A stretch of DNA of 64,000 nucleotides. Origin: Deltaproteobacteria bacterium. Lineage in GTDB: Bacteria; Desulfobacterota; JAJRXV01. Location of the stretch: the NCBI GenBank assembly GCA_024275075.1, contig JAJRZU010000070.1:17234-81233 (forward strand). The letters are read 5' to 3'. Positions 2,989 through 62,651 of this stretch are shown here, piece by piece. The notes beneath the pieces were generated by a model, which made no database searches, was not told the DNA's origin, and saw only the letters and a list, made by a program, of their open reading frames with translations. Each line of letters opens with the position of its first letter. Position 1 is the first letter of the stretch. Position numbers and translations under genes: made by a program.

Positions 2989-4677
2989 TTGATGAGTAAG
3001 AATTTTTCAACGGAAGCAAAAGTCGGTATCTTCGTCCTGTTAGGGATTGTAGCCCTGGCGTACATGTCGCTCAAGGTCGGTGAGATACGCATTGGCAAAG
3101 AGAAGGGTTACCGGTTGCGCGTACAGTTCACAAACGCTGGCGGGCTGCAAAGAGACGCCGCCGTACGCGTCGCGGGAGTCCGGGTCGGCAAGGTAGTCAA
3201 GATCTTCTTAAAAGATTCGAAGGCGCACTTGACATTGCTTATTAATAACAAGGTCTTTTTGGAGAAAGATGCGAGAGCGATGATAAAGACCTCGGGCATT
3301 CTGGGCGATAAGTACGTCGAGATACTTCCGGGCGTGGCAGAGGATTATCTGGTGGACGGGGATGAGATAATCAAGACCCTGTCTCCCGCGGATCTTGACA
3401 GTCTGATGAACAAGGTGACGGTGATCGCCGATGACATCAAGCAGGTCACAGGCTCATTAAGACACTCCATCGGTACTAAGGAGAGCTACGAGGATATCAG
3501 GCAGATACTGGTAAGTGTGCGGGATACCACGTCTCTGATGCGCGAGGTCATTAACAGGAATGATGAGAAGATCGAGCGGTTCTTCACCGATTTAGAATCT
3601 ATAAGTGGTAATATTGATGATCTTGTCAGGCAAAATGATGAGAAGGTGAGTAGATTCTTCACTAATTTCCAGGAGGTGAGTGATTCATTAAATGACCTTA
3701 TTAAGAACAATAATGATAATGTATCTGCGATCGTTGCGAATCTCAAGGGTTTCTCCGGTGACTTAAAGGATATCTCAGATGCGAACAAAGAATCATTAAA
3801 CGATGTTATATCTAACCTGCAATCCTTTTCTAACAGCCTTTCAGAAAAGACGCCAGAGATATTCGCTCAACTTAAGGAGATATCTAATAACATCAATCGG
3901 ATAGTCCAAGAGAACAAACCCGGGCTAAAAGAGGGCATCAGGAACATCAACACCGCGTCAGTGAGGTTAAAGGACACCCTTAATTCCTTGAAGAACGTCA
4001 CAAAAAAGATCGACGAGGGTGACGGTACTGTCGGTAAGCTGATCAATGAGGACACCACGTATAATAAACTGAACGATACCCTGGCCGGTATCAACAAGTA
4101 CCTTATCAAAGCCGATCAGTTCAAGACTATTGTGGATTTCCGCTCTGAGTACATGTCCGAGGCCGACGCTTTTAAGCACTACCTCACGCTACGTTTTCAA
4201 CCTAACCAGGACAAGTACTATTTTGTAGAGATAATCGATGACCCCGCGGGCGAAGTCACGACCACTGACAGGTACATCACCACCCAGGTCGGTGACGAGC
4301 CCGCGCAGACGACAGTCACTCACGAAGAGGTCGTCGAGGATAAGTTCAAGTTATCGATAGGTATCGCGAAAAGATACTATGACATGGTCATAAGGGGCGG
4401 GATAATAGAGTCTTCGGGTGGTTTCGGGCTGGACTACAACTTGTTTGACGATAACCTGAAATTGAGCGTGGACGCCTATGACTTCAACAATAACGATAAT
4501 ATCCACATGAAAGCATACGCGCAACTGAACCTCATGAAACACCTTATCGTTACTGCCGGTTACGATGATTTTGTAAAGCGCGACACTGACCCGTCATATT
4601 TCTTCGGCGCAGGCTTTACTTTTACAGACGACGATCTTAAATACCTGCTGACGAGTGTACCGCTGTCAAGCAGGTAG
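2989..4677 (+). CDS. mlaD: MCE/MlaD family protein with long coiled-coil and beta-rich C-terminal extension
   Basis: N-terminal TM helix, MCE domain (KVGIFVLLGI..LKVGEIRIG..RVAGVRVGKV), then about 300 aa of heptad-like repeats and a beta-strand-rich tail. 562 aa. Confidence 0.7.
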   Translation: MMSKNFSTEAKVGIFVLLGIVALAYMSLKVGEIRIGKEKGYRLRVQFTNAGGLQRDAAVRVAGVRVGKVVKIFLKDSKAHLTLLINNKVFLEKDARAMIKTSGILGDKYVEILPGVAEDYLVDGDEIIKTLSPADLDSLMNKVTVIADDIKQVTGSLRHSIGTKESYEDIRQILVSVRDTTSLMREVINRNDEKIERFFTDLESISGNIDDLVRQNDEKVSRFFTNFQEVSDSLNDLIKNNNDNVSAIVANLKGFSGDLKDISDANKESLNDVISNLQSFSNSLSEKTPEIFAQLKEISNNINRIVQENKPGLKEGIRNINTASVRLKDTLNSLKNVTKKIDEGDGTVGKLINEDTTYNKLNDTLAGINKYLIKADQFKTIVDFRSEYMSEADAFKHYLTLRFQPNQDKYYFVEIIDDPAGEVTTTDRYITTQVGDEPAQTTVTHEEVVEDKFKLSIGIAKRYYDMVIRGGIIESSGGFGLDYNLFDDNLKLSVDAYDFNNNDNIHMKAYAQLNLMKHLIVTAGYDDFVKRDTDPSYFFGAGFTFTDDDLKYLLTSVPLSSR

Positions 4678-4698
4678 TAAAAGGAGATTACATACAGT

Positions 4699-5742
4699 AT
4701 GGTAAAGAAGTACGAGCTCGTTAAATCAGTCAGGTCTTCTGGGTGAGCAGGTAAACTAGGTCAGGCTGATCTAAACGAGGTGATATCGAAAATGAAGATC
4801 AAAGCGGACAAAAATGTGCTTGCCGCCGTGGATCACTTTGAGGATGCCGGTGTATACAGACTTACCGATGACATTGCGATCGTGCAGTCTGTCGATCTGA
4901 TTACGCCTGTTGTGGACGACCCGTACATCTTCGGGCAGATAGCCGCCGCGAACGCGCTCTCGGATATCTACGCTATGGGCGCGAAACCGGTCACCGCGCT
5001 GAACATCATCGGCGTACCGATCTGCGATTTCGGGGACGAGGTGCTCATAAAGATACACAAAGGCGGGCTGAAGAAGCTTGAGGAGGCGGGCTGCTCCCTG
5101 ATCGGCGGACACACGCTCGATGACCTGGAGCTGAAATACGGGCTTTGCGTCACCGGCACACTACACCCTGACAAGGTGTATTATAACAACAAGGCCGCAA
5201 TCGGGCACGAGATGATCATCACCAAACCCATTGGTAACGGTATTATCACAACCGCCGGTAAAGCGGGTATGGCTGAAGAGGGGGTTATGCAAAAGAGCAT
5301 CGACAGCATGTTGGCGCTTAACAAGGATGCGGGCGAAATAATGAAAAAATATGATGTAAGCGCGTGTACGGACGTAACCGGTTTCGGGCTGCTTGGCCAC
5401 ATGTACGAAGTTGCCCACTCTTCTGATGTCAGCGTCATGGTGGATCATGACAGCGTACCGGTTCTCAGTGGCGCTTATGAATACGCGAGCATGGGGCTTA
5501 TACCCGCGGGCAGTCACTCGAACGAACAGTTCCTAAAAGATCACATCAGCGCGCAAAATTCATTGGGGGAGACATGGCTCTCGATCCTTTGCGACCCCCA
5601 GACCTCGGGCGGGCTCATGATCTTTGTCAATAAAGAGCATTCAAAAAAACTTTTGAAAGATTTGAAGGATAATGGTATAGTAGATGCTCAGCTAATCGGC
5701 AATGTAATACAAAAGAGCGATAAATCCATTATAGTATCGTAA
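4699..5742 (+). CDS. selD: Selenide, water dikinase SelD; selenoprotein with in-frame UGA (Sec) at 4744-4746
   Basis: ATG at 4699 after an AAGGAG ribosome-binding site. Translation reads [21 protein letters not shown]..; the U and K align with Cys17/Lys20 of E. coli SelD (GCGCK). Downstream the sequence is in frame with the track ORF 4780-5742, which carries SelD motifs ([23 protein letters not shown]). Confidence 0.8.
4757..4773 (+). promoter_or_regulatory. Candidate SECIS-like hairpin 10 nt downstream of the selD UGA
   Basis: UAGGUCA-GGC-UGAUCUA: a 7-bp stem (one G-U pair) with a triloop, immediately 3' of the Sec codon. Not matched to the E. coli SECIS consensus. Confidence 0.25.
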
Positions 5743-5770
5743 TACATTTCTTTTTATAGAGGGGGAGATA

Positions 5771-7333
5771 TTGTCAAAGATAAAATTAGCGCTTATCAGC
5801 GTTTCAGATAAGAGCGGTATTGTTGAATTCGCGAAACAGATAAATGAGATGGGCGTAAACATCCTCTCGACAGGCGGCACCGCGAGACTGCTCATGGAGA
5901 ACGGTATATTTGTAAAGGATGTCTCTGAACATACCGGGTTCCCGGAGATGCTCGACGGCAGGGTCAAAACGCTTCACCCGAAGATACATGCCGGTCTGCT
6001 CGCAATCAGGAACAATCCGCAGCACATGAGCAAGATGAAAGAGTATGACATCGACCCGATCGATATGGTGGTGGTGAACCTGTACCCGTTTGAAGCTACT
6101 ATCGCGAACCCGGACTGCGAACTTGAGGACGCCATCGAGAATATCGATATCGGCGGCCCCACGATGCTCCGTTCCGCGGCGAAGAACTACCAAGACGTTT
6201 CTGTGATCGTCGACCCCGCGGATTATGAGAAGGTCGTGCGAGAGATGACTGATTCTGGCGGCGGCGTATCGATCGCGACAAACTTTTATTTGTCGAAGAA
6301 GGTGTTTTCGCACACTGCGAGGTATGACAGCATAATCGCGAACTATCTTGGTACGGTCAACGAGAACAAAGAGAAGAATGAGTTCCCGGACACGCTTAAC
6401 CTGAATTATATAAAGGCGCAGGATCTGCGCTACGGTGAGAACCCGCACCAGATGGCCGCTTTTTATAAGGAGCATAAGGTGGAGGAGCCCTGCGTCTCGA
6501 ACTCTGTCCAGCTTCAGGGCAAAGCGCTCTCGTTTAATAACATTATCGATATCGACGCGGCTTATGAAACGGTGAAGGACTTACCGAAGAATGCCGCTGT
6601 CGTGATCAAGCATACGAACCCGTGCGGGGCGGCTATATCTGACGAGAGCCTTCTGGACGCTTACAAAAAGGCGCGTGCGACAGACCCGGTATCCGCGTTC
6701 GGCGGCATCGTCGGGCTTAACAAAAAGGTGGACGAAGCGACGGCGGCGGAGATAATCACGACGTTCATCGAGGCGGTCATCGCACCGGACTACGACGAGG
6801 CGGCGCTCAAAGTTTTCACCGAAAAGAAGAACCTTCGGATACTGAAATCGCCGCCGCTTGAAGCTTATATAAATAGCGGGTATGACCTGAAAAAGGTTAC
6901 CGGCGGCCTGCTTATCCAGACGCGCGACACCGGCATGGTGGATATCGGCGGGTGCAAGGTTGTGACAACAAGGGAGCCGACCGAAGAGGAGCTCACGGCG
7001 CTCGACCTCGCGTGGAAGATATGCAAACATGTGAAATCAAATACTATTGTATACTCTGCCGCCGACCGGATAATCGGTGTCGGCGCCGGTCAGATGAGCC
7101 GTATAGATTCCGCGAAGATAGCCGTGATGAAGGCGAACTCCCCGATAAAGGGTACTGTGATGGCGTCAGACGCGTTCTTCCCGTTCAGAGACGGGGTAGA
7201 CGCCGCGGCAAAAGCCGGTGTCACCGCGGTGATACAACCCGGCGGCTCGCAAAGGGATGATGAGGTCATCGCCGCCGCGAACGAGCACGGCATGGCGATG
7301 CTCTTCACCGGTATGAGACACTTTAAACATTAA
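5771..7333 (+). CDS. purH: Bifunctional AICAR transformylase / IMP cyclohydrolase PurH
   Basis: MGS-like N-terminal domain ([11 protein letters not shown]) plus AICARFT domain. 520 aa full length. Confidence 0.9.
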
Positions 7334-7343
7334 GGGGGCTTTT

Positions 7344-8096
7344 ATGTACAGACGCCGGAAAATAATTTTTAGGATAATTTTACCGCTTATGGCGCTGGCG
7401 CTTTTTTCCACCCTTCTCACCGGCTGCCAGAGCGAAGAGGATAAGAAATTCGATGCGCTTTTGAAAAAACTGCATGACGCGGACGCGAATGACAGGGACC
7501 ATGCTGCGACAGCTCTTGGTGTCTTGAAGGATCCGCGCGCGGTCAGTTTCCTCGCGGATACGGTAATAAGGGACACAGACCCGAAAGTCCGCCTGAGCGC
7601 GGCAACGTAACTGGGCGTGATCGGTGATCCGGCCGCGATCGAGCCGCTCGCGGACGCCTTGAACGATGATGATACGCAGGTGAGGTGGTGGGCGGTCACG
7701 TCTCTTGGGATGATACAAGACCCGCGCGCAGTCAAGCCGCTCTCTGACACGCTGAAAAACGATACAGATACCAATGTAATAAATGCCGCCATCTCCGCTC
7801 TCGGGGTTCTGGGCGACCCGGGCGCGATCGAGCCGCTCACGGCAGCTTTGAAGAGCAGCGACACGAAGATAAAAAGAGGAGCGATCGCCGCTTTGGGGCA
7901 GATAGGGAAACCCGCCCTGGATATTATTATCCGCTCTCTTAACAACGAGGATACTTTTGTCAGGATCAGCGCCGCGTCCTCTCTGGAGCGGATCGGTGAC
8001 CCGCGCGCGAAGGGCCCCCTCACCAAAGCTCTTAACGATACTAACTCGAGCGTGCGGAAGATCGCGAAAAGAGCATTGGAGAAACTTGCTAAATAA
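7344..8096 (+). CDS. HEAT/PBS-lyase repeat lipoprotein, interrupted by in-frame TAA at 7608-7610 (pseudogene or read-through)
   Basis: Lipobox LLTGC. About nine HEAT repeats (xxAAxALGxxxDPRAxxPL). Track ORFs 7344-7610 and 7617-8096 are in the same frame, and the repeat register is continuous across the stop (RLSAAT*LGVIGDP). Confidence 0.6.
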
Positions 8097-15594: not shown

Positions 15595-18573
15595 ATGATA
15601 AATAAAATCGAAGTATCGCTAAAGCCGTTTATAAGGGACGTGCGTGGGGAATCTGTTAGAAACGGGATCTCGAACTATCTTCACGTGGACGTTCAAGATG
15701 TAAGGATAATCGATACTTATATCCTCGAAGGTGACTTCACTGACAAAGAGATCGTCAGTATCGCTTCTAACCCCCTGTTAGACCCTGTAATACAAATGTT
15801 CTCGATCAACAAACCGATAAGCGGGGACTTTGATTTCATCATCATGGTGGGGTTCCTCCCCGGCGTCACCGATAATGTCGGGAGAACCGCGAAGGAAGCT
15901 ATCGGCACCTTTCTGGGCAGGCCTTTCGCAGACGGTGAAGGCGTTTACACCGCGCAACAGTATCTCATAAAAGGGGCGCTTGATTATGATGACGCGAAAA
16001 AGATCGCCCATGACCTTTTGGCCAATGAACTCATACAAAGCTTCCAGGTAATGTCGCAGGCTGACTTTTTGCGTGAGGGCGGCTTTGTGACAACCGCACC
16101 GAAAGTCAGCATCCTGCTTGAGGCGAAGGTGGATGAGATCGACCTGAACATCCCTGACGACGAGCTTGTCAAGTTAAGCAAAGATGGTCTTTTGGCGCTC
16201 TCATTAGATGAGATGAACACGATCAAAGATCACTTCAACGATGATGAGTTCATCTCACAAAGACGAAAGGTCGGCCTGACTTCCCGCATCACCGATGTCG
16301 AGCTTGAATCACTGGCGCAGACATGGTCTGAGCACTGCAAGCATAAGATATTCAACGCTGACATAGACTATACTGATGAACTTGGTATTACCACCAGAAT
16401 CAGCAGTCTTTTTAAAACATATATCGTCAACTCGACGAAGAAGATTCGGCGAAGTAAGGGTAATAACGATTTCTGCCTCTCCGTCTTCAAGGATAACGCC
16501 GGTGTCATCTCGTTTGATGATAACCACAATATCGTACTCAAGGTTGAGACTCACAACAGCCCTTCCGCGCTTGACCCGTACGGCGGCGCCCTTACCGGTA
16601 TCGTCGGCGTCAATCGGGACCCGTTCGGCACCGGTCTCGGCGCGAGGCTGATATTCAACACCGATGTCTTTTGTTTCGCCTCGCCATTTTACGATAAGGA
16701 GCTGCCACCGAAACTGTTGCACCCGCGCAGGATATATGAGGGTGTCGTCACCGGTGTCGAGCATGGCGGTAACAAGAGCGGCATACCGACTGTCAACGGT
16801 ACGGTCGTGTTCAATGAACGGTTCCTTGGGAAACCGCTCGTCTTCTGCGGCACCGGCGGTATTATGCCGAAAACGATCAACGGCAGGCTCTCCCATGAGA
16901 AGAGAGCGAATGCCGGTGACCTCATCGTCATGACCGGCGGCAGGATCGGTAAGGACGGCATCCACGGCGCGACATTCTCCTCTGAGGAGCTACACGAAGG
17001 CTCACCGGTGACGGCAGTGCAGATAGGCGACCCGATAACGCAAAAGAAGATGACGGACTTTCTGCTCATAGCGAGGGATCTTGGGCTCTACAGCTCGATC
17101 ACAGATAACGGCGCTGGCGGGCTCTCGTCATCCGTCGGTGAGATGGCCGAAGACTGCGGCGGGTGCCGGCTTCACCTTGACAAAGCGCCCCTGAAGTACA
17201 GCGGGCTCCAGCCATGGGAGATACTCGTCTCCGAGGCGCAGGAACGGATGACGCTCGCGGTGCCCAAGGAAAACATCGAGCGGTTCATGGAGCTGGCGAA
17301 GACTATGGATACTCAGGCCACCGTTTTAGGGGAGTTCACCGACACCGGTATCTTCCACATCCTGTATGAGGATAAAACGGTCGCGTACTTAGAGATGGAG
17401 TTCCTGCATCACGGCCTGCCCCCGATGAACCTGACGGCGAAGTTTGAGACGCCGCGTCACACCGAACCTGACCTGCCCGATTAGGTAGACATAAAGGATA
17501 CTCTTCTCAAGCTGATGAGATCATTAAATATTTGCAGTAAGGAATCGATCGTGAGGCGGTATGACCACGAGGTGCAGGGCGGCAGTGTCATAAAGCCGTT
17601 TGTCGGCGCAACGAACGACGGGCCGTCAGACGCCGCTGTTTTGCGGCCTCTCCTTGAATCGTTCAAAGGGATAGTCGTCTCGAACGGGATATGCCCGGAG
17701 TACAGCGACATAGATACGTATCACATGGCGGCGTGCGCGATCGACGAGGCGGTACGAAACGCTGTCTGCGTGGGCGGCGATATCGAGCACATGGCGGGGC
17801 TTGACAACTTCTGCTGGTGCGACCCGATAAAGAGCGACAGGAACCCGGACGGCGAATACAAACTCGCGCAGCTCGTCAGGGCGAACAAAGCGCTCTACGA
17901 TTACTGCACGGCCTACGGAATACCCTGCATCTCAGGGAAAGACAGCATGAAGAACGATTACATAATGGGCAGCTTGAAGATATCGATACCACCGACCCTG
18001 CTGTATACAGTGTTTGCCACGATCGATGACGTCAGAAGAGCCGTGACGATGGATTTCAAAGCAGCGGGCGACTGCATATACATCCTGGGCATCACAAAGG
18101 ATGAGCTCGGCGGCGGCGAATACTATAACCTGCTTTGCGCTACGGGCAACACAGTACCGAAAGTCGATGCGAACGCGGCCTACCACCGCTACAAAGCGGT
18201 ACTGGCCGCGATGAAAGAAGGGATTATCCGCTCATGCCACGACGCGTCCGACGGCGGGATCGGTGTGGCTATCACCGAATCCGCATTCTCTGGCGGGTTC
18301 GGGGCAAAGATCGACCTGACAAAAGTGCCTTGCGGCGATATCACAAGGGATGATATAATACTGTTCTCAGAATCGCAAAGCCGCCTGATCGTCTCAGTCA
18401 GCCCCAAAGATGAAAAGCGGTTCAGGTAGATCATGAGCGCGGATGCCTATGCCCGGATCGGAACTGTAACAGACAAAAAAGAGCTGATAATCAAAAGATT
18501 GGACAAAAGCAACGTGACTATCGATATAGATACATTAAAAAAAGCATGGCAAAAGCCGCTAAAGGGGTTATAA
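15595..18573 (+). CDS. purL: Fused PurS-PurL phosphoribosylformylglycinamidine synthase, interrupted by two in-frame TAG codons (17482-17484, 18427-18429)
   Basis: The N-terminal ~80 aa resemble PurS (VSLKPFIRDVRGESV..VQDVRI). PurL AIR-synthase domains run in one frame across both TAGs (..EPDLPD*VDIKD..NICSKESIVRRYDHEVQG..; ..EKRFR*IMSADAYARIGTVTDK..LKKAWQKPL). True stop TAA at 18571-18573. Confidence 0.8.
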
Positions 18574-18593: not shown

Positions 18594-18703
18594 CACGGAG
18601 TGCAACGCAACAATAACATGAACAAAAACGTTGCGTTGCGTTTCGCTTAACAGCAACCTACTCGGCTGTGATAGAAAACTCTCTGTGACCTCTGTGGTGA
18701 AAG
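18594..18703 (+). other. Structured intergenic element between purL and purQ (nested inverted repeats)
   Basis: CCACAGAG (18594-18601) pairs with CTCTGTGG (18685-18692). There is also a perfect 10-bp inverted repeat, GCAACGCAAC (18602-18611) and GTTGCGTTGC (18630-18639). The element contains one copy of the 33-nt repeat. Confidence 0.4.
18629..18661 (+). repeat. 33-nt repeat, copy A (cgttgcgttgcgtttcgcttaacagcaacctac)
   Basis: Matches the reverse complement of 36572-36604 at 32 of 33 positions. Confidence 0.55.
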
Positions 18704-18735
18704 AGCTATTTGTGGTTCTGAAAGAAGGTAACGAA

Positions 18736-19572
18736 ATGCCGGTAAAGACAAAGGCGGCGGTAATAACAGGTTATGGTGTCAATTGCGAGCGTGAGATGGC
18801 TCATGCCTGCGCGTTGGCCGGTTTTGATATCGTTGACATAATACATATCAGCGAGCTGTTGAGCTTTGCGAAGGATATCAACGGGTACCATTTCCTGAAC
18901 TTCGCCGGCGGCTTCTTAGACGGTGATGATCTGGGCAGCGCGAAGGCCTGCGTGAACCGGTTCAAGTACGCCGTACCTTCTGGCGGCGGTGAGAAGATAG
19001 TCGATCAGATCCAGCGGTTCATCTCGGATAAGAAGCTGATTCTGGGTATATGCAACGGTTTTCAGCTCATGGTGAAGTTCGGTATCCTGCCGGGCTTTGA
19101 CGGCAGTTACATTGACCAGTCGGCTACATTGACGTTCAACGATTCCGCGCGTTTTGAGGATAGGTGGGTCTATCTCAAGATCAACGACAGCTAGCCATGC
19201 GTCTTCACAAAGGGCGCAAAAGGAGTATACCTGCCAATCCGGCACGGTGAGGGGAAGTTCATCTCAAACGATGATGAGACCCATAATAGGATCATCAGTA
19301 ATAACCTTAACGCTATCATGTACAGTGACAGCGATTATGTCGCGACGGACGTACCGTATCCGATGAACCCGAACGGCTCGAAGGCTGGAATCGCGGGTAT
19401 CTGCGATCCAAGCGGCAGGCTTTTTGGCATGATGCCGCACCCCGAAGCCTACCTGCACTACACGAACCATCCGCGCTGGACCCGCGAGAAGATGCCCGAA
19501 GAGGGGCAGGGTCTTTTATTCTTTAAGAACGCACATAAATATGTGAAGGAGCGCCTGACCGAAAATGCATGA
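18736..19572 (+). CDS. purQ: Phosphoribosylformylglycinamidine synthase glutaminase subunit PurQ, interrupted by in-frame TAG at 19192-19194
   Basis: Class I glutamine amidotransferase ([14 protein letters not shown]). Homology continues in the same frame after the TAG (..[34 protein letters not shown]..). Confidence 0.8.
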
Positions 19573-20977
19573 TTTAAAAGAGAAGTGTGGGGTTTTTGGT
19601 ATATACGGCCACCCCGAAGCATCCAACCTTACGTATCTGGGGCTCTACGCGCTTCAGCACAGGGGGCAGGAGAGCGCGGGGATCGTATCCCTGGACAATA
19701 AACAGTTATACAGTTACAGGCAGATGGGGCTTGTCGCGGATATATTCAATGAAAGCGTGCTCGACACCCTGCCGGGCAACGCTGCGATCGGGCACGTTCG
19801 CTACTCCACCACCGGTTTCAGCCAGTTGAAAAACGCCCAGCCCTTTGTCGTCGACTACTCATTGGGCAGCATCGCGGTCGCGCATAACGGGAACCTGATA
19901 AACGCTGACCTCTTAAGAGATGAGCTCGAAGCTCACGGCGCGATCTTCCAATCGACGATGGATACAGAAGTGATCATTCACCTGATATCGATATCGAAGA
20001 AAAAGTACCTATTAGACAGGCTGATAGAGGGCATCTCATTTATAAAAGGGGCATATTCCCTTCTATTCCTGACAAACGAGAAGATGATCGCCGTAAGGGA
20101 CCCGAACGGGCTAAGGCCGCTCGTATTGGGTAAGCACAAGAACGCGTGGGTCGTTTCATCGGAGTCATGCGCGCTCGACCTGATTGACGCCGAGCTGGTG
20201 CGGGAAGTCGAGCCCGGCGAGATAATAGTGATCGACAAAAACGGGCTTAAATCATACAAGCCGTTTGAGGAGCGGGACGAGACGTTTTGCATCTTTGAAT
20301 ACATATACTTCGCGAGGCCGGACAGCATTATCCAGGACAAAAACGTGTACGAGGTCAGGAAGATGCTTGGCAGGCAGCTCGCCAGGGAGTGCCCGCTCGA
20401 CGCCGACTATGTCATACCGGTGCCAGACTCGGGGATACCGGCCGCATTGGGCTATTCTCAGGAGAGCGGTATACCGTTTGAGCTTGGTATAATTAGGAAC
20501 CATTATGTCGGCAGGACTTTCATCGAGCCGCGCCACTCTATCCGTGGTTTTGGTGTCAGGATAAAGCTGAATTCACTGAAGAAGGTCTTGAATAATAAGC
20601 GGATCGTACTGATAGATGACTCGATCGTCCGCGCTACTACGTCGGAGAAGATCGTCAAGATGATGCGTTTGGCCGGTGCGAAAGAGGTGCACATGAGGAT
20701 ATCGTCACCACCGACTACGCACCCGTGCTATTACGGTATCGATACCCCTACAAAAAGGGAGCTGATCGCGTCGAGCCATACGATAGAGCAGATAAACACG
20801 AAGATCAAAGCGGACTCTCTGGGCTATTTGAGTATCGAAGGAATGAGGAATTCGGCAAACAGCCTCTCCGTGGGGAAACCGGACAGATACTGCGATGCCT
20901 GCTTCACGGGTAATTACCCGATAGGCTACCCCAAGCACAGAAGAGAAGCCCAGCTCGATCTATTTAATAAGAAGTAA
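19565..20977 (+). CDS. purF: Amidophosphoribosyltransferase PurF
   Basis: Propeptide plus CGVFGI Ntn nucleophile, then PRTase domain. 470 aa. Overlaps the purQ stop by 8 nt. Confidence 0.9.
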
Positions 20978-20982
20978 ATAAA

Positions 20983-22824
20983 ATGACCGCAAAAATAAGA
21001 ATTATTCCTGATACGTTATCAAACAAGATCGCTGCCGGTGAAGTTGTACAAAGACCCGCCTCAGTCGTCAAGGAACTCATTGAGAACTCTATCGATGCTG
21101 GCGCCGATCAGATAACCATCGATGTGAAGCGCGCTGGTAAAGCGCTGATAAAAGTGACCGATAACGGTAGCGGCATGACGAAAGACGACGCGCTGCTTTG
21201 TATAGAGCGATTCGCTACAAGCAAGATTAGGAGCGAGTCCGACCTCTTTAATATCAAAACGCTCGGGTTCCGGGGCGAGTCGCTCCCGTCGATAGCATCG
21301 GTGAGCAGGTTCGGGCTTATCACCAAGACCAGCGACGAGGTGGAGGGTACGGCACTGTATATGGAGGGCGGGAAGCTGAAAAGCGTGAGAGCGGCAGGCG
21401 CCCCGACCGGTACGAGCATATCGGTGAAGAGCCTTTTTTATAACACCCCAGCCCGCCTTAAATTCATGAAATCGAATACCGCGGAACTGTTCCACATCAC
21501 CGACACAGTCGTCAAGATCGCCGCGTCAAGGCATGGCCTGCACATAAGGTTGATCAGTGACGGCAGGATAATCGTCGATTTCACAAAAGCCACCGATAGT
21601 TACAACAGGATCTGCGATATCTTCGAGAGCGATATTTACAGGCACCTGATAAGGGTGGATGAGAAGAATGAAAATATACACGTTTTCGGGTTCGTTTCAA
21701 ACCCGGTATACACGACGGGCAACACCAGAAAATTCTTCACCTACCTGAACGGCAGGTACATCTTTGACAAGCTGGTCAATTACGCGATCATCTCGGTATA
21801 TAAGGCGAAGATCGAGGAGAGGAAGTACCCGGCGGTCGTTTTGTTCATCGAAATACCATTTGACATGGTCGATGTGAACGTGCACCCGACGAAAAAGGAT
21901 GTCAGGTTCAAGGATCAAAACTATGTGATAAACTGCATCAAGAAGGCGATTACAAATGCGCTCTCCTCGATCCAGCCGCTTGGTTACAGCGGTATGGGTG
22001 GTGGCGGCGGTACTTCTGCGCGAGCCGGGAGTATCGTGCAGGCGATGCAGGAGTATACGAAAAGCGCCGCAGCCAAGCCGGTAAGCGGGTATGAGGGCGG
22101 GAGAACGCTTTTTTCTGACGATTCCTTTACAAAGCGACCCGAGGTGACTTTCGCGCAAGAGCCTGACGCGGCCGCTTACGGTACCGGTTCATTCAGCGAT
22201 AAGGCCGCGGCTGCGTATGACCCTGTGATACCGATGGAGACTGTGGGTGAGCATATAAAGGTATTAGGGCAGGTTGGCGCGTCTTTCATCATCTGCACGA
22301 AGGGCGACTCGCTACTGCTCATCGACCAGCACGCGGCGCACGAGCGGATATTGTATGATGACCTGGTGCAGAAGCATAAGGAGAAGAAGGTATCCCCGCA
22401 GCCGCTGTTGATACCGATAATCTTTGAGCTCTCAAAGACCGACGCCATGCTCTTGCAAAGTTACATAGATGAATTCCACGCCATCGGCTTCACGATCGAG
22501 CCTTTCGGTAAGAACAGTTACGCGGTGAAGGAAGTACCGGATATCCTTATGGGTTATGACTATAAGGCGATAATCCACGATATCATATCCGAACTTATGT
22601 TCCTGAATAAAACCGCAGACATCAAGGACAAAGCCGCCGGCCTGATGAAACTGCTCGCGTGCAAGGGCGCGATAAAAGCGAACAGGCGGCTGACGCATCC
22701 TGAAATAACGCAACTCCTACAGGATATGTCGCAGACGGACTTCCCGACGAACTGTCCGCACGGGAGGCCGGTCGTCATCGAACTCACCATAAAAGATATC
22801 AGCAGGATGTTCAAGAGGCTGTGA
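20983..22824 (+). CDS. mutL: DNA mismatch repair protein MutL
   Basis: GHKL ATPase motifs (AAGEVVQRPASVVKELIENSIDAGA) plus C-terminal dimerisation domain. 613 aa. Confidence 0.9.
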   Translation: MTAKIRIIPDTLSNKIAAGEVVQRPASVVKELIENSIDAGADQITIDVKRAGKALIKVTDNGSGMTKDDALLCIERFATSKIRSESDLFNIKTLGFRGESLPSIASVSRFGLITKTSDEVEGTALYMEGGKLKSVRAAGAPTGTSISVKSLFYNTPARLKFMKSNTAELFHITDTVVKIAASRHGLHIRLISDGRIIVDFTKATDSYNRICDIFESDIYRHLIRVDEKNENIHVFGFVSNPVYTTGNTRKFFTYLNGRYIFDKLVNYAIISVYKAKIEERKYPAVVLFIEIPFDMVDVNVHPTKKDVRFKDQNYVINCIKKAITNALSSIQPLGYSGMGGGGGTSARAGSIVQAMQEYTKSAAAKPVSGYEGGRTLFSDDSFTKRPEVTFAQEPDAAAYGTGSFSDKAAAAYDPVIPMETVGEHIKVLGQVGASFIICTKGDSLLLIDQHAAHERILYDDLVQKHKEKKVSPQPLLIPIIFELSKTDAMLLQSYIDEFHAIGFTIEPFGKNSYAVKEVPDILMGYDYKAIIHDIISELMFLNKTADIKDKAAGLMKLLACKGAIKANRRLTHPEITQLLQDMSQTDFPTNCPHGRPVVIELTIKDISRMFKRL

Positions 22825-26430: not shown

Positions 26431-29079
26431 TCATGAACCGAACTTCTTACCCCGCATCAAAAGGGAGTTACTCACAACCGATACCGATGAGAACGCCATT
26501 GCCGCGCCCGCGATTATCGGGTTAAGCAGCCATCCGGTGAGCGGGTACAAGAGCCCCGCCGCGATAGGAATGCCAGCTGCGTTATAGATAAATGCCCAGA
26601 AGAGGTTCTGCTTGATCTTTTTCATTGTGTAGCGGGAAAGATCCATCGCGGTCACGACGTCCCGCAGATCCTCTCTGATGAGCACGATATCCGCGGATTC
26701 TATGGCGACGTCCGTACCCGAACCGATCGCGATACCGACATCGGCCTGTGTGAGCGCGGGGGCGTCGTTTATACCGTCACCGACCATCCCGACAATTTTA
26801 CCGGCGTCCTGAAGCTTCTTCACCTCCGTCGCTTTATCTTTCGGGAGTACCTCGGCGATAACCTCAGAGATACCGACCTGCCTGCCGATCGCGGCGCCGG
26901 TGCGCCTGTTGTCACCGGTAATCATGATCGTCGTGATCCCCATCTTAGTTAGCCTGGCGATCGCTTCTTTCGAGTGCTCCTTCAACTGGTCGGCAACGGC
27001 GATTATGCCCTGCGCCTTATTATTGAACGCGAGCATCATCGCAGTCTTGCCTTCGGTCTCATATTTTTCGAGTTTCTCTTTAATGGATTCAGTATCGATA
27101 CCCTTTTTTTTCATGAGCGCCATGTTGCCGATAGCGATCTCTCTATCTGCGTAAACTATTTCGACACCCATACCGGTGATAGAGTTGAATTTGTCAGGTT
27201 CACTTATCGTAAGCCTCCGATCCTTCGCGCCTTTTACTATCGCCTCACCAAGCGGGTGTTCAGAACTCTTCTCCGCGATCGCCGCGAGTTTCAAGAGCTC
27301 ATCCTCGTTCATCTCACCGGTAGTGAATATGTCGGTCACCTCGGGCTCTCCCTTCGTCAGCGTACCGGTCTTGTCAAAAACGATGGTGCTGAGCTGATAC
27401 GCTTTCTGCAGGCTCTCCGCGCCCTTGATGAGTATCCCGTGTTCGGCGCCCTTACCCGTGCCGACCATGACAGCGGTCGGTGTCGCAAGCCCCATAGCGC
27501 ACGGGCACGCGATGATGAGTACCGCTATGAAAGTGTTAAGCGCGAAGATGAACTCCTTGCCGACCAGGAAGTACCAGGTGATGAACGCTATTACAGCGAT
27601 CACAACGACTACCGGTACGAAATATCCAGAGATGGTGTCTACTAATTTTTGTATCGGCGCCTTTGACCCTTGTGCGTCCTCGACGAGCTTGATGATATTC
27701 GCGAGCGCTGTGTCCGCCCCGATCCGATCCGCCTTTAACTTGAAGGTGCCGGTCTTGTTTATCGTAGCGCCGATCACCGTAGCCCCTTCGCTCTTCTCCA
27801 CGGGTATGCTCTCACCGGTGAGCATCGACTCGTCTACGGATGAGTGGCCGGAGACGACAGTACCGTCCACCGGTATCTTTTGACCGGGTTTCACGACCAC
27901 GACATCGCCGACTACCACCTCTTCTATCGGGAGTTCAACTTCGTTACCGTCGCGGATAACGATAGCCGTTTTCGCCTGCAAGCCCATCAGCTTCTTGATC
28001 GCCTCAGATGTTTTCCCCTTCGCGACCGCCTCTAAATACTTACCAAGAAGGATGAACGCGATCAGGAGCCCCGCCGTCTCATAATAGAGGTAGCCGGTTT
28101 TTATCACGCCGGTTATTATAAGAACAGTGTTAATTATACTGTAAACGTAAGCGGTACCGGTACCTATAGCGACGAGCGAGTCCATGTTCGGCATCCGGTT
28201 CTTTATCGCCTTATAACCGTTTATGTAAAAATCTCTGCCGACATATATGATAGGAGTTGTCAGAAATAACTGAAGAATAGCGTTCGCCGTTTCACTCACC
28301 GGCAGTTTAGGGACTGATAAATATTCACTCATGGCGAGGTATACAAGCGGTAACGCCAGGATAATCGAAACGATAACACGGCTTTTTAAGACCGCTACCT
28401 CCTTTTCGCGCTCCTCTTTTTCCGCGTCCTTCGATTCAAAGACCTTCGCACCATAACCGGCATCCTCCACCGCATGGATCATCTGCGATACCTTTACCTT
28501 TTCATCGTCAAATGTCACATCCGCCCTGCCGGTGGAGATATTCGTCGTCACCTCTTTTACGCCGTCAAGCTTTTCGAGCGATTTTTGCACAATACCGGCG
28601 CAGTGGTCAGAGCCCATACCGGTTATCTGCAAGGTTATCCGCCCCTTGCCGCCGCCTTTCAGCACACCATAACCGGCGGACTCAACCGCCTGGGCAAGTT
28701 CGTCCATACCGGTTTTGCCAGAGTCATACTCGACGTAAGCTTTGCTCGACGCAAAGTTCACGTTCGCTTTCGCGACACCGGGCACTTTCTCAAGACTCTT
28801 GGTGATGGAGATGGCGCACGACGCGCAGGTCATACCGGTGATGCTTATCATCTCCTTAGAGTCAGCTGTGGCGCCGCTCTTTGCGGTTTCACCGGCGCCC
28901 TTTTCCACCGGCGCTTTCTCTGTCTCTTCCTCTGGAGGATTCAGGGACTTCACCGGGTCGGCGTCAAACTTATCCTTACAGTTTTTCGAGCAGAAAAAGT
29001 ATTTCTCATCATTGTACGCACTTGAAAATTTCGCTTCATCTTCGTTGACGTCCATTTTACAGATCGGGTCAATAGCCAT
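26431..29079 (-). CDS. copA: Copper-translocating P1B-type ATPase CopA with N-terminal YHS/TRASH and two HMA domains
   Basis: N-terminal Cys-rich YHS-like region; HMA motifs GMTCASC and GMGSDHC; CPC, DKTGT and GDGINDAP motifs. 882 aa. Confidence 0.9.
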
Positions 29080-43671: not shown

Positions 43672-45546
43672 TTATATCCCTAATGCGGCTCTCTTTTTAT
43701 TTATATGGTCTTCGATTCCGTTCACTATCTCCACAGGGTCTTCCCCCACCGCTACTTTACCACCGGTGATACCCTCGATGCCGCTGGTCAACAGCGCGAC
43801 GAGCTCTGGTGCGCCCGTGACAGGCGGAGTCGGTGATACGTGCGTGTAGAGCCCGAACGCTACCGCAAAGAACGCGTCGATAACCGCTTTCTGCTCAAGA
43901 TACTCTGGTGCTGTCACCGCAACGGGCAGCTGCGACGGATCCACCCCGAGCGCGTCCGCGATGGCGGTCACGAGGTTCGCTATCCGACCGGTATCCGAAC
44001 ATGTACCGAAACTTAGCACCGGTGGGATGTTCAGCGCCTTGCAAAGCCCTTTCAGCTTCTCGCCGGCAATGTCAGCCGCCTCTAACGTAGTCAGACCGCC
44101 CACCTGCAAAGCGGCGTTACCGCAACCGGCGCTTAGCACCAGTATATCGCGCTTGATCAGCTCCTTCGCGACGGCAATCGAGAGCGCGTCCTGCGGGCCG
44201 TTCTTCAGCGTCGTACAGCTTATCAACGCCGTGACGCCTTTTATGGTGCCGTTTTTGATAGCGTCTAAAAGCGGTGTAAGGCTCCCGCCCAACACATCCA
44301 GAATCGCCTCGGCGGAACAGCCGGAGATTATCTGCTTCTTATGCTCAGATGGTGAGGATGGCTTGTCCTTGCGGTTCTCAAAATTACTGATCGCGATATC
44401 TATCAGCTCAAGAGCGATACTCTTCGCGTCTTCGGGCAGATAGTTCAACCGCTTGTCAACGCCTTGCAGCGCGACGAGCTTTGACACCGGTACTATTGTC
44501 GCGTTGTACTTTTCGGCGTATTCGCTCAGCGTCGGTATCGTACAGTTCATATCAGCCGCGAAAACGTCAACGGTACCGGTCGCCAGAACAAACTCCTCGT
44601 TGAGCCAGTTACCGGTCAGGCCGACGAAAACGTCATCGCATTCGAAGCGCTGGATCAGCTCCTGACCGGTCTCGATAGAACCGACAACGTGTATCCCCTT
44701 CGCGCCCGCCGCGACGGCTTTCCCGTTCAGCCCCGGGTCGTCCTTTATCACCTTTATCAGCGCCGCCCCGACGAACGGTTCATGACCGTTCACAACGATA
44801 TTGACGTAATCCTTCTCAAGTATCCCGATATCAACGTTTGTCTTGTGCGGCTTTGGTGTACCAAAAAGTATGTCGTGGCACATCTCGATCGGTACGAGCG
44901 CTCCGTACGTGGACGCTATCCCCAGCCTGAGCGCTTTGAGCGCGAGCGATACATAATCACCGTCAACGTTGGTCATAGCTGATGTAGACGCGCTCATGAT
45001 CTCGTGCAGCGGGCCGCCGGGGAAGATACCAAGCTTTCTCCAGAGCTCCTTCCTGCTCTTCGGCGCGAACGCGTTGACCATCGTTGACTCTGTGTCACCG
45101 TCAAGGTTTATCTGGGCAATAATGAAGTCGGCGACATCGCCCGCTATCTTATTGGTATCGCCGTCCGTGTTTATACCAAGCTTTTCGGCGAACCCCTTGA
45201 GTTTTCCCGGTTCTTTTACCGCAAACACATCGCTGCCGTTCGCCGCCGCCTTAAGCGTTTTCGCGCTCTCGACCGCGTGAAAAGAATAGGCGGCGATACC
45301 CATTATATTCCTGTGCAGCATATTCCTCATCGCCATAGTGTTCGCGTCGACACCACATGCCCCCCTTGACGCTTTCGCGGTCAGACGGCATGGCCCCATC
45401 GAACATAACTGACAGCTCACCCCGTCAGAGCAGAACTTGCATCTTATGCCCTGAGCGTCAAACCTTTCGACGACAGAACTCATACCGTCAGCCTTTACCT
45501 TCTCGTGCATCTGTACCACACTTTCATGTGCGCTTACTTTTTCCAT
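43672..45546 (-). CDS. cooS: Anaerobic Ni-dependent carbon monoxide dehydrogenase catalytic subunit CooS
   Basis: N-terminal CKFCSDGVSCQLCSMGPCRL aligns with the CooS B/D-cluster motif CGFGETGLCCRHCLQGPCRI. Prismane/HCP fold; 624 aa. Confidence 0.9.
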   Translation of the reverse strand: MEKVSAHESVVQMHEKVKADGMSSVVERFDAQGIRCKFCSDGVSCQLCSMGPCRLTAKASRGACGVDANTMAMRNMLHRNIMGIAAYSFHAVESAKTLKAAANGSDVFAVKEPGKLKGFAEKLGINTDGDTNKIAGDVADFIIAQINLDGDTESTMVNAFAPKSRKELWRKLGIFPGGPLHEIMSASTSAMTNVDGDYVSLALKALRLGIASTYGALVPIEMCHDILFGTPKPHKTNVDIGILEKDYVNIVVNGHEPFVGAALIKVIKDDPGLNGKAVAAGAKGIHVVGSIETGQELIQRFECDDVFVGLTGNWLNEEFVLATGTVDVFAADMNCTIPTLSEYAEKYNATIVPVSKLVALQGVDKRLNYLPEDAKSIALELIDIAISNFENRKDKPSSPSEHKKQIISGCSAEAILDVLGGSLTPLLDAIKNGTIKGVTALISCTTLKNGPQDALSIAVAKELIKRDILVLSAGCGNAALQVGGLTTLEAADIAGEKLKGLCKALNIPPVLSFGTCSDTGRIANLVTAIADALGVDPSQLPVAVTAPEYLEQKAVIDAFFAVAFGLYTHVSPTPPVTGAPELVALLTSGIEGITGGKVAVGEDPVEIVNGIEDHINKKRAALGI

Positions 45547-53894: not shown

Positions 53895-54878
53895 TTACAC
53901 TAAAAAAATGTCTTCTGCAAGCATACAGGCAGAAAAATGCCCGTTTTTTATCTCCCTTAATTCGGGTACGATCTCCTTACACGTCTCCTTTGCGTACTGA
54001 CAGCGGGGATGAAAGATGCACCCCCGCGGCGGGTTTATCGGGCTCGGGACATCACCCTTTAAGATGATACGCTTCTTTTTCCCCTCCACGGCAATGCTTG
54101 GCACTGCGGATAAGAGCGCGGTTGAGTATGGGTGTAGCGGCTGTTTATACAAACTTTTACTGTCCGCCAGCTCCATCATCTTACCTAAGTACATCACACC
54201 GACACGGTCGCTTAAATACTCCACAACCCTTAGATCGTGAGAGATAAACAGATAAGTGAGGTCAAACTCCTCCTGCAAGTCCTTTAAAAGATTAAGTATC
54301 TGAGCCTGGATAGAGACATCGAGCGCCGAGACCGGTTCGTCGGCTATTATGAGCATCGGGTTCACGCTTAGCGCGCGCGCAATTCCGACCCGCTGCCGCT
54401 GCCCCCCGCTGAACTCGTGCGGGTACATATTCAATGACTGCTCATGTATACCGACAAGGTTCAAAAGCTCTTTTGTCCTGTCCACCCGCTCTTTGCGCGT
54501 CGAACATATTTTGTGAACGCCAAGCCCCTCTGACACCGTTTGACCGATAGACATCCGCGGGTTCAGGGATGCCTGAGGATCCTGAAAGATTATCTGCATA
54601 TCCTTGCGGACTCTCTTCATCCCCCTTTTGCTCAGCTTCAAAATATTGTCGCCATTATAAAGTATCTGGCCGCTTGTCGGTTCTATCAGCCGCAGGATAA
54701 GTTTTGCCAAAGTGCTCTTACCGCAACCGGACTCACCGACGAGACCGAAAGTCTCACCTTTAAAAAGAGTGATGCTGACATCGTCTACAGCCGTAAGCGA
54801 CTGTTTTTTCTCATACATCCTTGACTTTATCAGAAACGTTTTTGTCAGGTTCTCTATCTTGAGAAGCTCTTTTTGCAT
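53895..54878 (-). CDS. oppF: Oligopeptide/dipeptide ABC transporter ATP-binding protein (OppF/DppF-like)
   Basis: Walker [10 protein letters not shown], signature LSGGQRQRV and the C-terminal oligopeptide-ABC extension. Confidence 0.85.
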
Positions 54879-55853
54879 CTATACCATCCAGCATCGCGCG
54901 TAATGCCCCGCTTCGACCTCTTTAAAGGGGGGCGGATCATCGCATATCTTTTTCTTCAATGGGCATCTGGTCTTAAAAAGACAGCCCCCGGGCAGGTTCA
55001 AAAGGTGCGGTACTACTCCAGCGATCGCGTTCAGCCGACCCTTCTTCTTCTCGTCATGTTCAGCATCACTGATCGAGGGCAGCGATTGCAAAAGCCCTGT
55101 CGTGTACGGATGCCTCGGCGTTGACAGCACCTTCCTGACCGTAGAATATTCAACGATCTTACCGGCATACATGACCGCCACGTTATCGGTGTTTTCAGCG
55201 ACTATCCCAAGATCGTGCGTGATCAACAGCACAGCCATCCCCAGCTTCTGCTTCAGGTCATTTATCAGCTCGAGTATCTGCGCCTCGATAGTGACGTCCA
55301 GGGCTGTAGTCGGTTCGTCCGCGATCAGAAGTGACGGGCTACATGAGAGCGCTATCGCTATCATCACGCGCTGACGCATCCCACCAGAGAGCTGGTTCGG
55401 GTAATCGTTTATCCTGCGCTTGGCGGCAGGGATACCGACCAGCCTAAGCATATCGACCGCGCGGTCATACGCTTCCTTCTTACTGATATCAAGGTGCACC
55501 CGCATCGCCTCGGTGATCTGGTCACCCACAGTGAATACCGGGTTAAGCGACGTCATCGGTTCCTGGAATATCATCGATATCTTATCCCCGCGGATATTCC
55601 GTATCTCCTCATCGCTTGACCGCAATATATCCTTGCCATTAAAAACGATCTCGCCACCGGCTATCTCGCCCGGCGGCTGGATGAGCCGCATGATCGACAG
55701 AGCCGTCACACTCTTGCCACACCCTGACTCACCGACAAGGCCGAAGGAATCACCCCTCTTGATCGAGAAGCTGATATCATCTACAGCCTTTGCGATGCCG
55801 GCGCTCAAGTTGAAATATGTCTTTAAGTTCTTGACATCTAATAAGTTTTCCAT
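54879..55853 (-). CDS. oppD: Oligopeptide/dipeptide ABC transporter ATP-binding protein (OppD/DppD-like)
   Basis: Walker A GESGCGKS, signature LSGGMRQRV and a C-terminal Cys-containing extension. Confidence 0.85.
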
Positions 55854-60820: not shown

Positions 60821-61004
60821 ATTCAGACCGTACTTTCCGCATAAAAAATATTATATTAATATCTTGTAATCCATACCGCTACTTAACGAACCCGATTAAT
60901 CCAGCCAGCCATAATTTCCTTGACAAATTCTGAATAAAATATGTATAAGTTGTTTAAGCAAAGTGCTTGAAAAGCAAATTGTATTTTTGGGTCCCGGGGG
61001 GATT

Positions 61005-62651
61005 ATGCTCGAAAAACTTATCTTTGGTCTGATCGGTGGACTCGGGATGTTCTTGTTTGGTATGAAGATTATGTCCGAAGGTTTGCAGAAGATCTCTGGT
61101 GACAGGATCAGAAGAACATTAGAGGCATTGACAACTAACAGGATAATGGGCTTACTCGTCGGGCTGGTTGTCACATCGATCATTCAAAGTAGCAGCGCTA
61201 CTACCGTTATGGTAGTCGGGTTCGTCAACGCCGGTCTGATGACGCTTGCTCAATCGATCGGGGTCATTTTAGGCGCGAATATCGGTACCACCATCACTGC
61301 CCAGATGATCGCATTCAAAGTGCACCATTACGCCCTGCCAATCTTAGGTATCGGTGTTTTCCTCAAGACATTTTCATCAAGTAAGCGATGGACATACATC
61401 GGGGAGGCAATGTTAGGTTTCGGGCTCATCTTTTATGGACTCGTTGTCATGAAAGGAGCTTTTGCGCCGCTAAAGACAAATCAGGCATTCATCAGTTATT
61501 TCACTCTATTCGGTGATAATCCCATTATAGGGGTATTGGTTGGGGCGGCATTGACTCTTGTCGTTCAGAGTAGCAGCGCGACAATCGGTATCACCATGAC
61601 GCTCGCTTCCTCTGGCCTGCTCAGCTTTTATGCCGCTGTTGCGCTCATTCTCGGAGAAAATATCGGTACTACGATCACCGCGAATCTGGCAAGCATCGGT
61701 ACTAATACGAACGCGAAGAGGGCGGCGAGGGCGCACCTGCTCTTTAATCTTATCGGTACCTTATACATGCTGATGATCCTGCCGTATTTCGTAACTTTTA
61801 TTGATTATATCACACCAAACAGCGCAGACTTTGTAAACGCGATTAATGAAAAACCCTTTATCGGCAGGCATATCGCTAACGCGCATTCATTGTTTAACGT
61901 ACTGAACGTACTCATATTTCTGCCATTTACCGGTTACTTAGCAAAAGCCGCTTCATTTATGGTGCCGCAAAAAGAGGGTGAGGAGGTAGAGTACGCGCTA
62001 AAATATCTGGATAACAAATTATTAAACACACCGGTCATCGCGATAAGTGAGGCGCGTAAATAAGTCGTGCGTATGGCGGAGATATCTCTTTCCATGTATA
62101 ATAATTCCATTGAATTCATTATGAATAATGATATGAAATTATTAAAGAAAATAACGAAAAAAGAGGGGATTGTCGATCTGCTGCAAAAAGATATTACAAA
62201 TTTCTTAGTGGAGATTTCACAGCAATCGATAACAAAGGATATCTCTAAAGAGATCGCGTCCTTACTTCACATGGTAAATGATTTAGAACGGATAGGCGAT
62301 CATTGCGAGAATCTCGCGAAACTGACTGAAAAGATAATCGATGGCAAGATAAAGATATCTGAAGGCGCGCTTGAAGAATTAAAGGATATTTCAGGCATTA
62401 CAAGGGAATTCATAGAGAGTACGGTAAAGGTTATCGGTGCGAAGAACAAGAAGTTCTTGCAAAACGCGCGCTACTTTGAGTCCCGTATCGATAAATTAGA
62501 GGATAATTATCGGGAGAACCACATAAAGCGGCTGAACGAGGGGCGGTGCAAAGTCACTGCCGGTCTGATCTATGTTGATATGCTCGCCAATTTCGAGAAG
62601 CTTGGCGACCATACATACAACATCGCGGAGGCTATCGCCGGTATCAAATAA
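61005..62651 (+). CDS. Na+/phosphate cotransporter (NptA family) fused to PhoU-like domains, interrupted by in-frame TAA at 62061-62063
   Basis: Na_Pi_cotrans repeats (QSSSATTVMVVGFVNAG.., QSSSATIGITMTLASSG..). After ..ISEARK*, same-frame PhoU-like helices follow (track ORF 62067-62651). This matches the usual single-polypeptide NptA-PhoU architecture. Confidence 0.75.

Follow-up and report, generated by a model that had tools for sequence, protein, structure and literature searches.

An in-frame TGA at the catalytic codon of selD in an uncultured deltaproteobacterial lineage and its probable decoding as selenocysteine

The 64,000-nt stretch of deltaproteobacterial DNA analyzed here (the window) carries on its forward strand a reading frame for selenophosphate synthetase (SelD; selenide, water dikinase) that runs from an ATG at 4699-4701 to a final TAA at 5740-5742 and is interrupted only once, by a TGA at 4744-4746, its codon 16. 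All features of this gene given below lie on the same strand. The locus raises the question of whether that TGA lies outside the true gene, marks damage within it, or is decoded, and in the last case as which amino acid. Existing gene calls bypass the problem by starting further downstream: a mechanical ORF list begins selD at GTG 4780 (320 aa), the NCBI-derived product of the same 82.8-kb contig (P0001) is 316 aa long, which places its start at ATG 4792, and the six closest relatives are likewise called short, at 294-328 aa. An earlier note on this DNA had argued instead that the gene was mis-started in the ORF track, that translation begins at ATG 4699 and that the TGA occupies the catalytic Cys/Sec position. 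Our analysis favors, with a probability of about 0.9, the reading of 4699-5742 as a gene for a Sec-type SelD, that is, a full-length coding sequence of 347 codons including Sec16, followed by the TAA stop, in which case the internal starts at 4780-4794 would be spurious products of the gene callers.

To identify the protein, the frame was read through the TGA, and residue 16 of the resulting SelD query was entered as C for the protein searches. The SelD equivalog model TIGR00476, whose cutoff is 125 bits, gave the 347-aa product of this read-through a score of 349.2 bits; the aligned part, residues 9-314, sets in ahead of the TGA and so includes the N-terminal extension. The PurM-like AIRS and AIRS_C domains (PF00586 and PF02769) are present in the precomputed assignments of P0001 and of all relatives. 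The best match among solved structures was the SelD of Aquifex aeolicus (2yye/2zod; E = 8e-73, aligned residues 5-337), followed by that of Escherichia coli (3u0o; E = 5e-60), and Cys-type homologues of 342-351 aa covered 98-99% of the query. In both the Aquifex and the E. coli alignments, the TGA column coincides with the loop cysteine: VRSSG-x-AGKLG of the window aligns with VRSSG-C-AAKVG of Aquifex and with SHGAG-C17-GCKIS of E. coli, residue 16 falling on E. coli Cys17 and Lys19 on E. coli Lys20. The position that the earlier note had assigned to the TGA is thereby borne out, SSG-U-AGK pairing with E. coli GAG-C(17)-GCK and VRSSG-C-A being identical in Aquifex. On the evidence of family model and alignments, the product belongs to the SelD family and the TGA stands at its Sec/Cys site. 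The catalytic Cys/Sec and the catalytic Lys of the enzyme are located in its N-terminal Gly-rich loop, and replacement of Cys17 by Ser (C17S) leaves the E. coli protein catalytically inactive (PMC3956282; bioRxiv 10.1101/2020.01.28.922716). A SelD begun at 4780 or 4792 would therefore be devoid of its active-site loop; indeed, both short calls lack the Gly-rich segment bearing the catalytic Sec/Cys and Lys.

On its upstream side, the selD frame is closed by in-frame TAG TAA at 4675-4680. Between these stops and the TGA at 4744 there is no ATG, GTG or TTG in frame besides ATG 4699 (4699-4701), which is therefore the only start able to include the TGA. The homologous codon is ATG or GTG in 6/6 relatives. 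A Shine-Dalgarno-like AAAGGAG at 4680-4686, 12 nt upstream of ATG 4699, may function in ribosome binding, and purine-rich stretches likewise precede the homologous start codon in the relatives. A scan for promoters and terminators over 4400-5900 yielded nothing above shuffled sequences.

We then compared the DNA of the window with that of its six closest relatives, all of them metagenomic and 63-69% identical (n = 7 with the window; the clade). The gene order MlaD/Aq_493-lipoprotein-family gene, selD, purH is common to all clade members (window 2989-7333; L001-L006). Plasmids, searched at the DNA level for distant matches, gave only short ones to selD, of 73-75% identity. TGA is found at the homologous selD codon in 6/6 relatives, and thus in 7/7 sequences with the window, and in all relatives it is preceded in frame by the peptide M(V/K)KKYEL(V/I)(K/R)SVRSSG. 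Over the 15 codons upstream of the TGA, the clade shows 5, 2 and 14 variable columns at codon positions 1, 2 and 3, and over all clade pairs the differing codons of this stretch comprise 138 synonymous versus 32 nonsynonymous changes; downstream of the TGA, the variable columns number 17, 8 and 24 by codon position. The third-position variation and the 138 to 32 count upstream of the TGA evidence, at the level of sequence, a translated frame under purifying selection, and rule out both an untranslated leader and a pseudogene. The start proposed in the earlier note is consequently upheld: ATG 4699 is the sole upstream candidate and its N-terminal peptide is kept in the relatives. As for that note's own reservation that SelD of relatives might start downstream, we found the same start and N-terminal peptide in all relatives examined.

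Sec-containing SelD also occurs in Haemophilus and in many Deltaproteobacteria and Firmicutes. When one genome per species was scanned, 80 SelD loci (L007-L086) were retrieved. All are 43-51% identical to that of the window, 51% being the identity of the best species-representative match, so that the source lineage is not represented among them. The homologous codon was TGA in 33 of these loci and TGT/TGC in 37, the remaining 10 being unmatched by the search pattern; neither TAA nor TAG occurred at this codon in any of the 80. Judged by its codons, this pattern is the classic Sec/Cys alternation. It agrees with the literature, according to which the SelD of many organisms is itself a selenoprotein (PMC12013277), mammalian SEPHS2 carries Sec at the Cys17-equivalent position (PMC8659212), and Sec-type SelD genes are mostly represented in GenBank by 5'- or 3'-truncated entries (PMC4607533).

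Downstream of the TGA, a SECIS-like hairpin spans 4757-4773, where TAGGTCA (4757-4763) pairs with TGATCTA (4767-4773) in a perfect 7-bp stem closed by a 3-nt GGC loop (4764-4766). The earlier note had described a small hairpin following the TGA immediately; the hairpin is indeed present and conserved in relatives, but it starts 10 nt past the TGA, for which "immediately" is a loose term. Its UGA-to-apical-loop distance is 17 nt, the published bacterial range being 16-37 nt (PMC10778597), and a hairpin of 5-6 bp shortly after the UGA has been reported to resemble the minimal E. coli element (PMC4607533). RNAalifold on the seven clade sequences recovered exactly the 4757-4773 helix, which is kept in 7/7 members, in one of them with a mismatch. 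Stem positions pair in 98% of the cells of the clade alignment, versus at most 47% when the partners are slid. One stem pair is compensatory in the clade (GC in four sequences, AU in two and GU in one), although covariation over the stem is not significant, 71 of 500 shuffles doing as well. Nor does the 57-nt stretch stand out by its folding energy of −6.5 kcal/mol (z = 0.51), 136 of 200 shuffles folding at least as well. The stem sits in the codons of a conserved G-Q-x-D-L motif, and coding constraint on this motif could explain part of its conservation. In the loop, GGC of the window is replaced by GGU, GUU or GAU in relatives, with G as first base in 7/7. A G in the first apical-loop positions is a feature of the bSECISearch model; here, this base is the third of the invariant Gln codon CAG, and it is therefore not independent evidence. 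A search of Rfam 15 gave no match over the window at gathering thresholds and none over 4650-4900 at E <= 10. Bacterial SECIS elements are too diverse for one model, and in one test at least 13% of known genes escaped bSECISearch (PMC12013277).

Cys-type selD genes served as a control for the structure downstream of the codon. In a Sec-type sample rich in Smithella-like sequences, and with kinship ignored in each comparison, the segment +9..+53 folded at −13.2 kcal/mol versus −8.4 kcal/mol in Cys-type genes (p = 6e-5, GC similar), local minimum free energy at the hairpin position was −7.7 versus −3.3 kcal/mol (p about 4e-7), and contiguous stems of 6 bp or more, with the loop centre at +19..+25, were found in 23/40 Sec-type versus 4/37 Cys-type genes (stem length p = 3e-7). 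Outside the clade of the window, stems of at least 6 bp were present in 17/33 Sec-type selD. The window itself ranks among the weakly folding Sec-type genes: its 63-nt stretch gives −9.6 kcal/mol, whereas the Sec-type genes average −17.2 kcal/mol. The conservation and the geometry of the hairpin are shown by these sequences. That the element at 4757-4773 acts as the SECIS is a reasonably probable interpretation, and it would then be the binding site of SelB.

The decoding genes themselves did not show up near selD. The 64-kb window contains no tRNA genes and hence no tRNA-Sec, and tblastn of E. coli SelA and SelB against its six frames gave nothing better than E = 0.55. As a positive control, the same queries found selA beside selD in three loci of the species scan (L021, L041 and L076), an adjacency that is not seen in the window or in L001-L006; about 55 kb of clade loci revealed neither selA, selB or tRNA-Sec nor any other tRNA gene. 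Two ORFs of 470 and 613 aa at 19565-22824, initially suspected to be selA and selB, turned out to be purF and mutL, and the other window ORFs of comparable size correspond to a BamB-like protein, to CooS or to a histidine kinase, or have no match. From the conservation of the decoded TGA, we infer that selA, selB and selC are located elsewhere in the genome.

The window holds further in-frame stops, of the TAA and TAG types. The purS-purL gene (15595-18570) contains a TAG at 17482-17484, where relatives have Ser or Pro, and another at 18427-18429, where they have Asn or Ala; in purQ (about 18664-19560), a TAG at 19192-19194 takes the place of the conserved Ser in SPC(V/I)FT. A TAA at 62061-62063 splits a Na/Pi-cotransporter-PhoU fusion gene (ORFs 60963-62063 and 62067-62651), which in the relative L002, 78% identical over 550 aa, forms one undivided ORF of 548 aa whose residue at the stop site is Glu, ISEARK[E]VVRMA. 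Homology runs on past each of these four stops, and no frameshift was seen at the TAG sites of the FGAM synthase genes (purS-purL and purQ). The absence of a consistent amino acid at the TAA/TAG sites argues against codon reassignment; nonsense mutations, sequencing artefacts and read-through are all possible explanations. That the purL UAG codons (17482 and 18427), the purQ UAG (19192) and the Na/Pi-PhoU UAA (62061) are also read through, beside the selD UGA, seems to us unlikely; if true, this organism would decode each of the three stop codons according to context. Additional same-frame ORF pairs are joined by a single TAA or TAG at 7608, 34512 and 46633 on the forward strand and at 55877-55875 and 54881-54879 on the reverse strand, where the ORFs 54879-55853 and 53895-54878 are both ABC ATPase-like; these pairs may be ordinary gene boundaries or more interrupted genes. 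We also considered, and discarded, the idea that in-frame stops are widespread in deltaproteobacterial purSL, since the two loci in question (L090 and L091), apparently from long-read assemblies, show frame changes instead. Their purSL genes (L090 2265-5206; L091 2910-5116) are annotated as overlapping fragments in different frames that break near residues 594-628, close to the first TAG of the window; indels from long-read sequencing or a purL that is split by nature could account for this.

Against this background, four other accounts of the selD TGA were weighed. At least four in-frame TAA/TAG codons interrupt conserved genes of the window (two in purL, one in purQ and one in the Na/Pi-PhoU gene), which leaves the quality of the assembly in some doubt, and the TGA of selD could be of the same sort, whether by nonsense mutation, by decay into a pseudogene or by an error of sequencing. 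However, those sites are occupied by sense codons in relatives, whereas the TGA is common to every relative and recurs in 7/7 clade members, which stem from independent samples, so that it is not just another lesion of a poor assembly; the earlier note had rightly set it apart from the TAA/TAG sites. The TGA also falls exactly on the Sec/Cys codon and both of its flanks are under purifying selection, which renders damage or error very improbable. A genome-wide reassignment of TGA to sense, as in code 4 (Trp) or code 25 (Gly), draws on the in-frame TGA itself and on nothing further. The 45 genes of the window end in TAA (24), TAG (13) or TGA (8), the last at normal operon junctions, and when the window was scanned for long open segments separated by just one in-frame stop, selD remained the only real gene with a TGA inside it. 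Since TGA still terminates genes and no second internal one is seen, the selD TGA represents a site-specific event in an unchanged code; moreover, the aligned residue of homologues is Cys, not Trp or Gly. Reassignment is, of all four accounts, the one to which we give the least credence, verging on none.

A real start downstream, at GTG 4780 or ATG 4792, would turn 4699-4779 into an untranslated leader, and all automatic calls, those of the clade relatives included, point that way. Against it stand the codon-position and synonymous-change patterns of the 15 codons upstream of the TGA and the fact that the SelD model and the structural alignments both reach into the stretch upstream of 4780; furthermore, the shortened product would forgo the loop with the catalytic Cys/Sec and Lys, in which a single substitution, C17S, inactivates the E. 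coli enzyme (PMC3956282; bioRxiv 10.1101/2020.01.28.922716). We regard such a start as scarcely credible. Somewhat less remote, yet still improbable, is the decoding of UGA as Cys or another standard amino acid, either by Cys-tRNA(Sec) under scarce selenium or by near-cognate read-through. This account would avoid the bootstrapping problem of a Sec-dependent SelD, which is itself needed to make Sec, and it accords with the failure to find selA, selB and tRNA-Sec within the 64-kb window. It leaves unexplained, though, that the TGA has been kept at 63-69% identity when one mutation to TGT or TGC would end the need for read-through, and that the hairpin shows a Sec-type enrichment; Sec-type SelD is, in addition, well documented (PMC12013277). 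Selenocysteine is thus the residue that we take to be inserted at codon 16.

Under the Sec-type reading, translation would start at ATG 4699 and would not terminate at UGA 4744, where SelB-GTP-Sec-tRNA(Sec), tethered to the hairpin at 4757-4773, would insert Sec. Sec16 and Lys19 would then occupy, within the Gly-rich loop near the N terminus, the places that the catalytic Cys17 and Lys20 have in E. coli SelD, and translation would proceed onward to the TAA that ends at 5742.

On this reading, the selD described here adds one more gene to an already known class, that of Sec-containing SelD, and brings nothing new to selenocysteine biology. Its immediate bearing is on annotation, as the deposited 316-aa product and the clade products (294-328 aa) lack the catalytic loop, and modelling or expressing the short products would give an inactive enzyme. 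Specific to this case are the uncultured lineage, the minimal hairpin and the clade-wide truncation of the public calls. None of the closest SelD relatives, all of them known from metagenomes alone, exceeds 69% identity, and this uncultured anaerobic lineage is likely a selenocysteine user; that the organism is an anaerobe is shown by CooS, the catalytic subunit of anaerobic CO dehydrogenase, which the window encodes (43672-45546, reverse strand; TIGR01702, 787 bits). It is conceivable that the SECIS of this clade is unusually minimal, with 17 nt, a loop of 3 nt and no lower helix; if true, this would point to a SelB that is less demanding of its RNA. Elsewhere in the window, a CopA-type P-type ATPase with tandem N-terminal metal-binding domains (26431-29079, reverse strand) scores 111 bits, against a cutoff of 95, with NF041115, a model named "UxxU metal-binding (seleno)protein"; no in-frame TGA was seen in this gene, and the match probably reflects the common HMA fold.

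Among characterized proteins, the SelD of A. aeolicus (2yye/2zod; N-terminally truncated in 2zau) shares with that of the window the motif VRSSG-[U/C]-A(G/A)K around the site, although it comes from a different lineage. The native Aquifex enzyme is said, in the 2009 work of Itoh et al., to carry Sec at this site, and the crystallized construct Cys. E. coli SelD (3u0o) has in common with the window protein the family, the 347-aa length and the Gly-rich loop; unlike the window selD, however, it obtains its Cys from an ordinary codon and involves neither recoding nor a SECIS.

A further comparison is offered by the Sec-type selD genes of Smithella/Syntrophales-like bacteria (such as L020, L041 and L047), whose proteins are only 45-47% identical to that of the window. 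They have the same TGA codon and a loop at the same position, +21..+23, in a hairpin built from the homologous G-x-x-D-L codons (GGUC...GACC), with stems that are longer (8-9 bp, GC-rich) than that of the window. Pelotomaculum/Desulfotomaculaceae-like Firmicutes (such as L051, L054 and L071) also have the same TGA codon, but their dominant hairpin is found further downstream, at +28..+48, with a GGU or GUA loop, and belongs to another positional class. Indeed, over the 60 nt past the codon, the hairpins of Sec-type selD in L007-L086 fall into two classes, one with the loop at about +21..+23 (Smithella-like sequences and the clade of the window) and the other with the hairpin at about +28..+48 (Pelotomaculum/Desulfotomaculaceae-like Firmicutes). 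On the Cys-type side, a 6-9-bp stem at the SECIS position is confined to four of 37 genes, all from Cohnella/Paenibacillus (L056, L059, L073 and L079), where it may be left over from a recent change of Sec to Cys.

The nearest parallel for the RNA element itself is the minimal SECIS of E. coli fdhF, the upper stem-loop that follows UGA140. Both hairpins lie inside coding sequence and are 17 nt long, the fdhF element at +15..+31 with −4.2 kcal/mol and that of the window at +14..+30 with −4.4 kcal/mol. In fdhF, the loop is larger and contains GGUC, one U is bulged and a lower helix extends the structure, which folds over 60 nt at −16.0 kcal/mol, whereas the window hairpin consists of a perfect 7-bp stem and a 3-nt loop, with no conserved lower helix.
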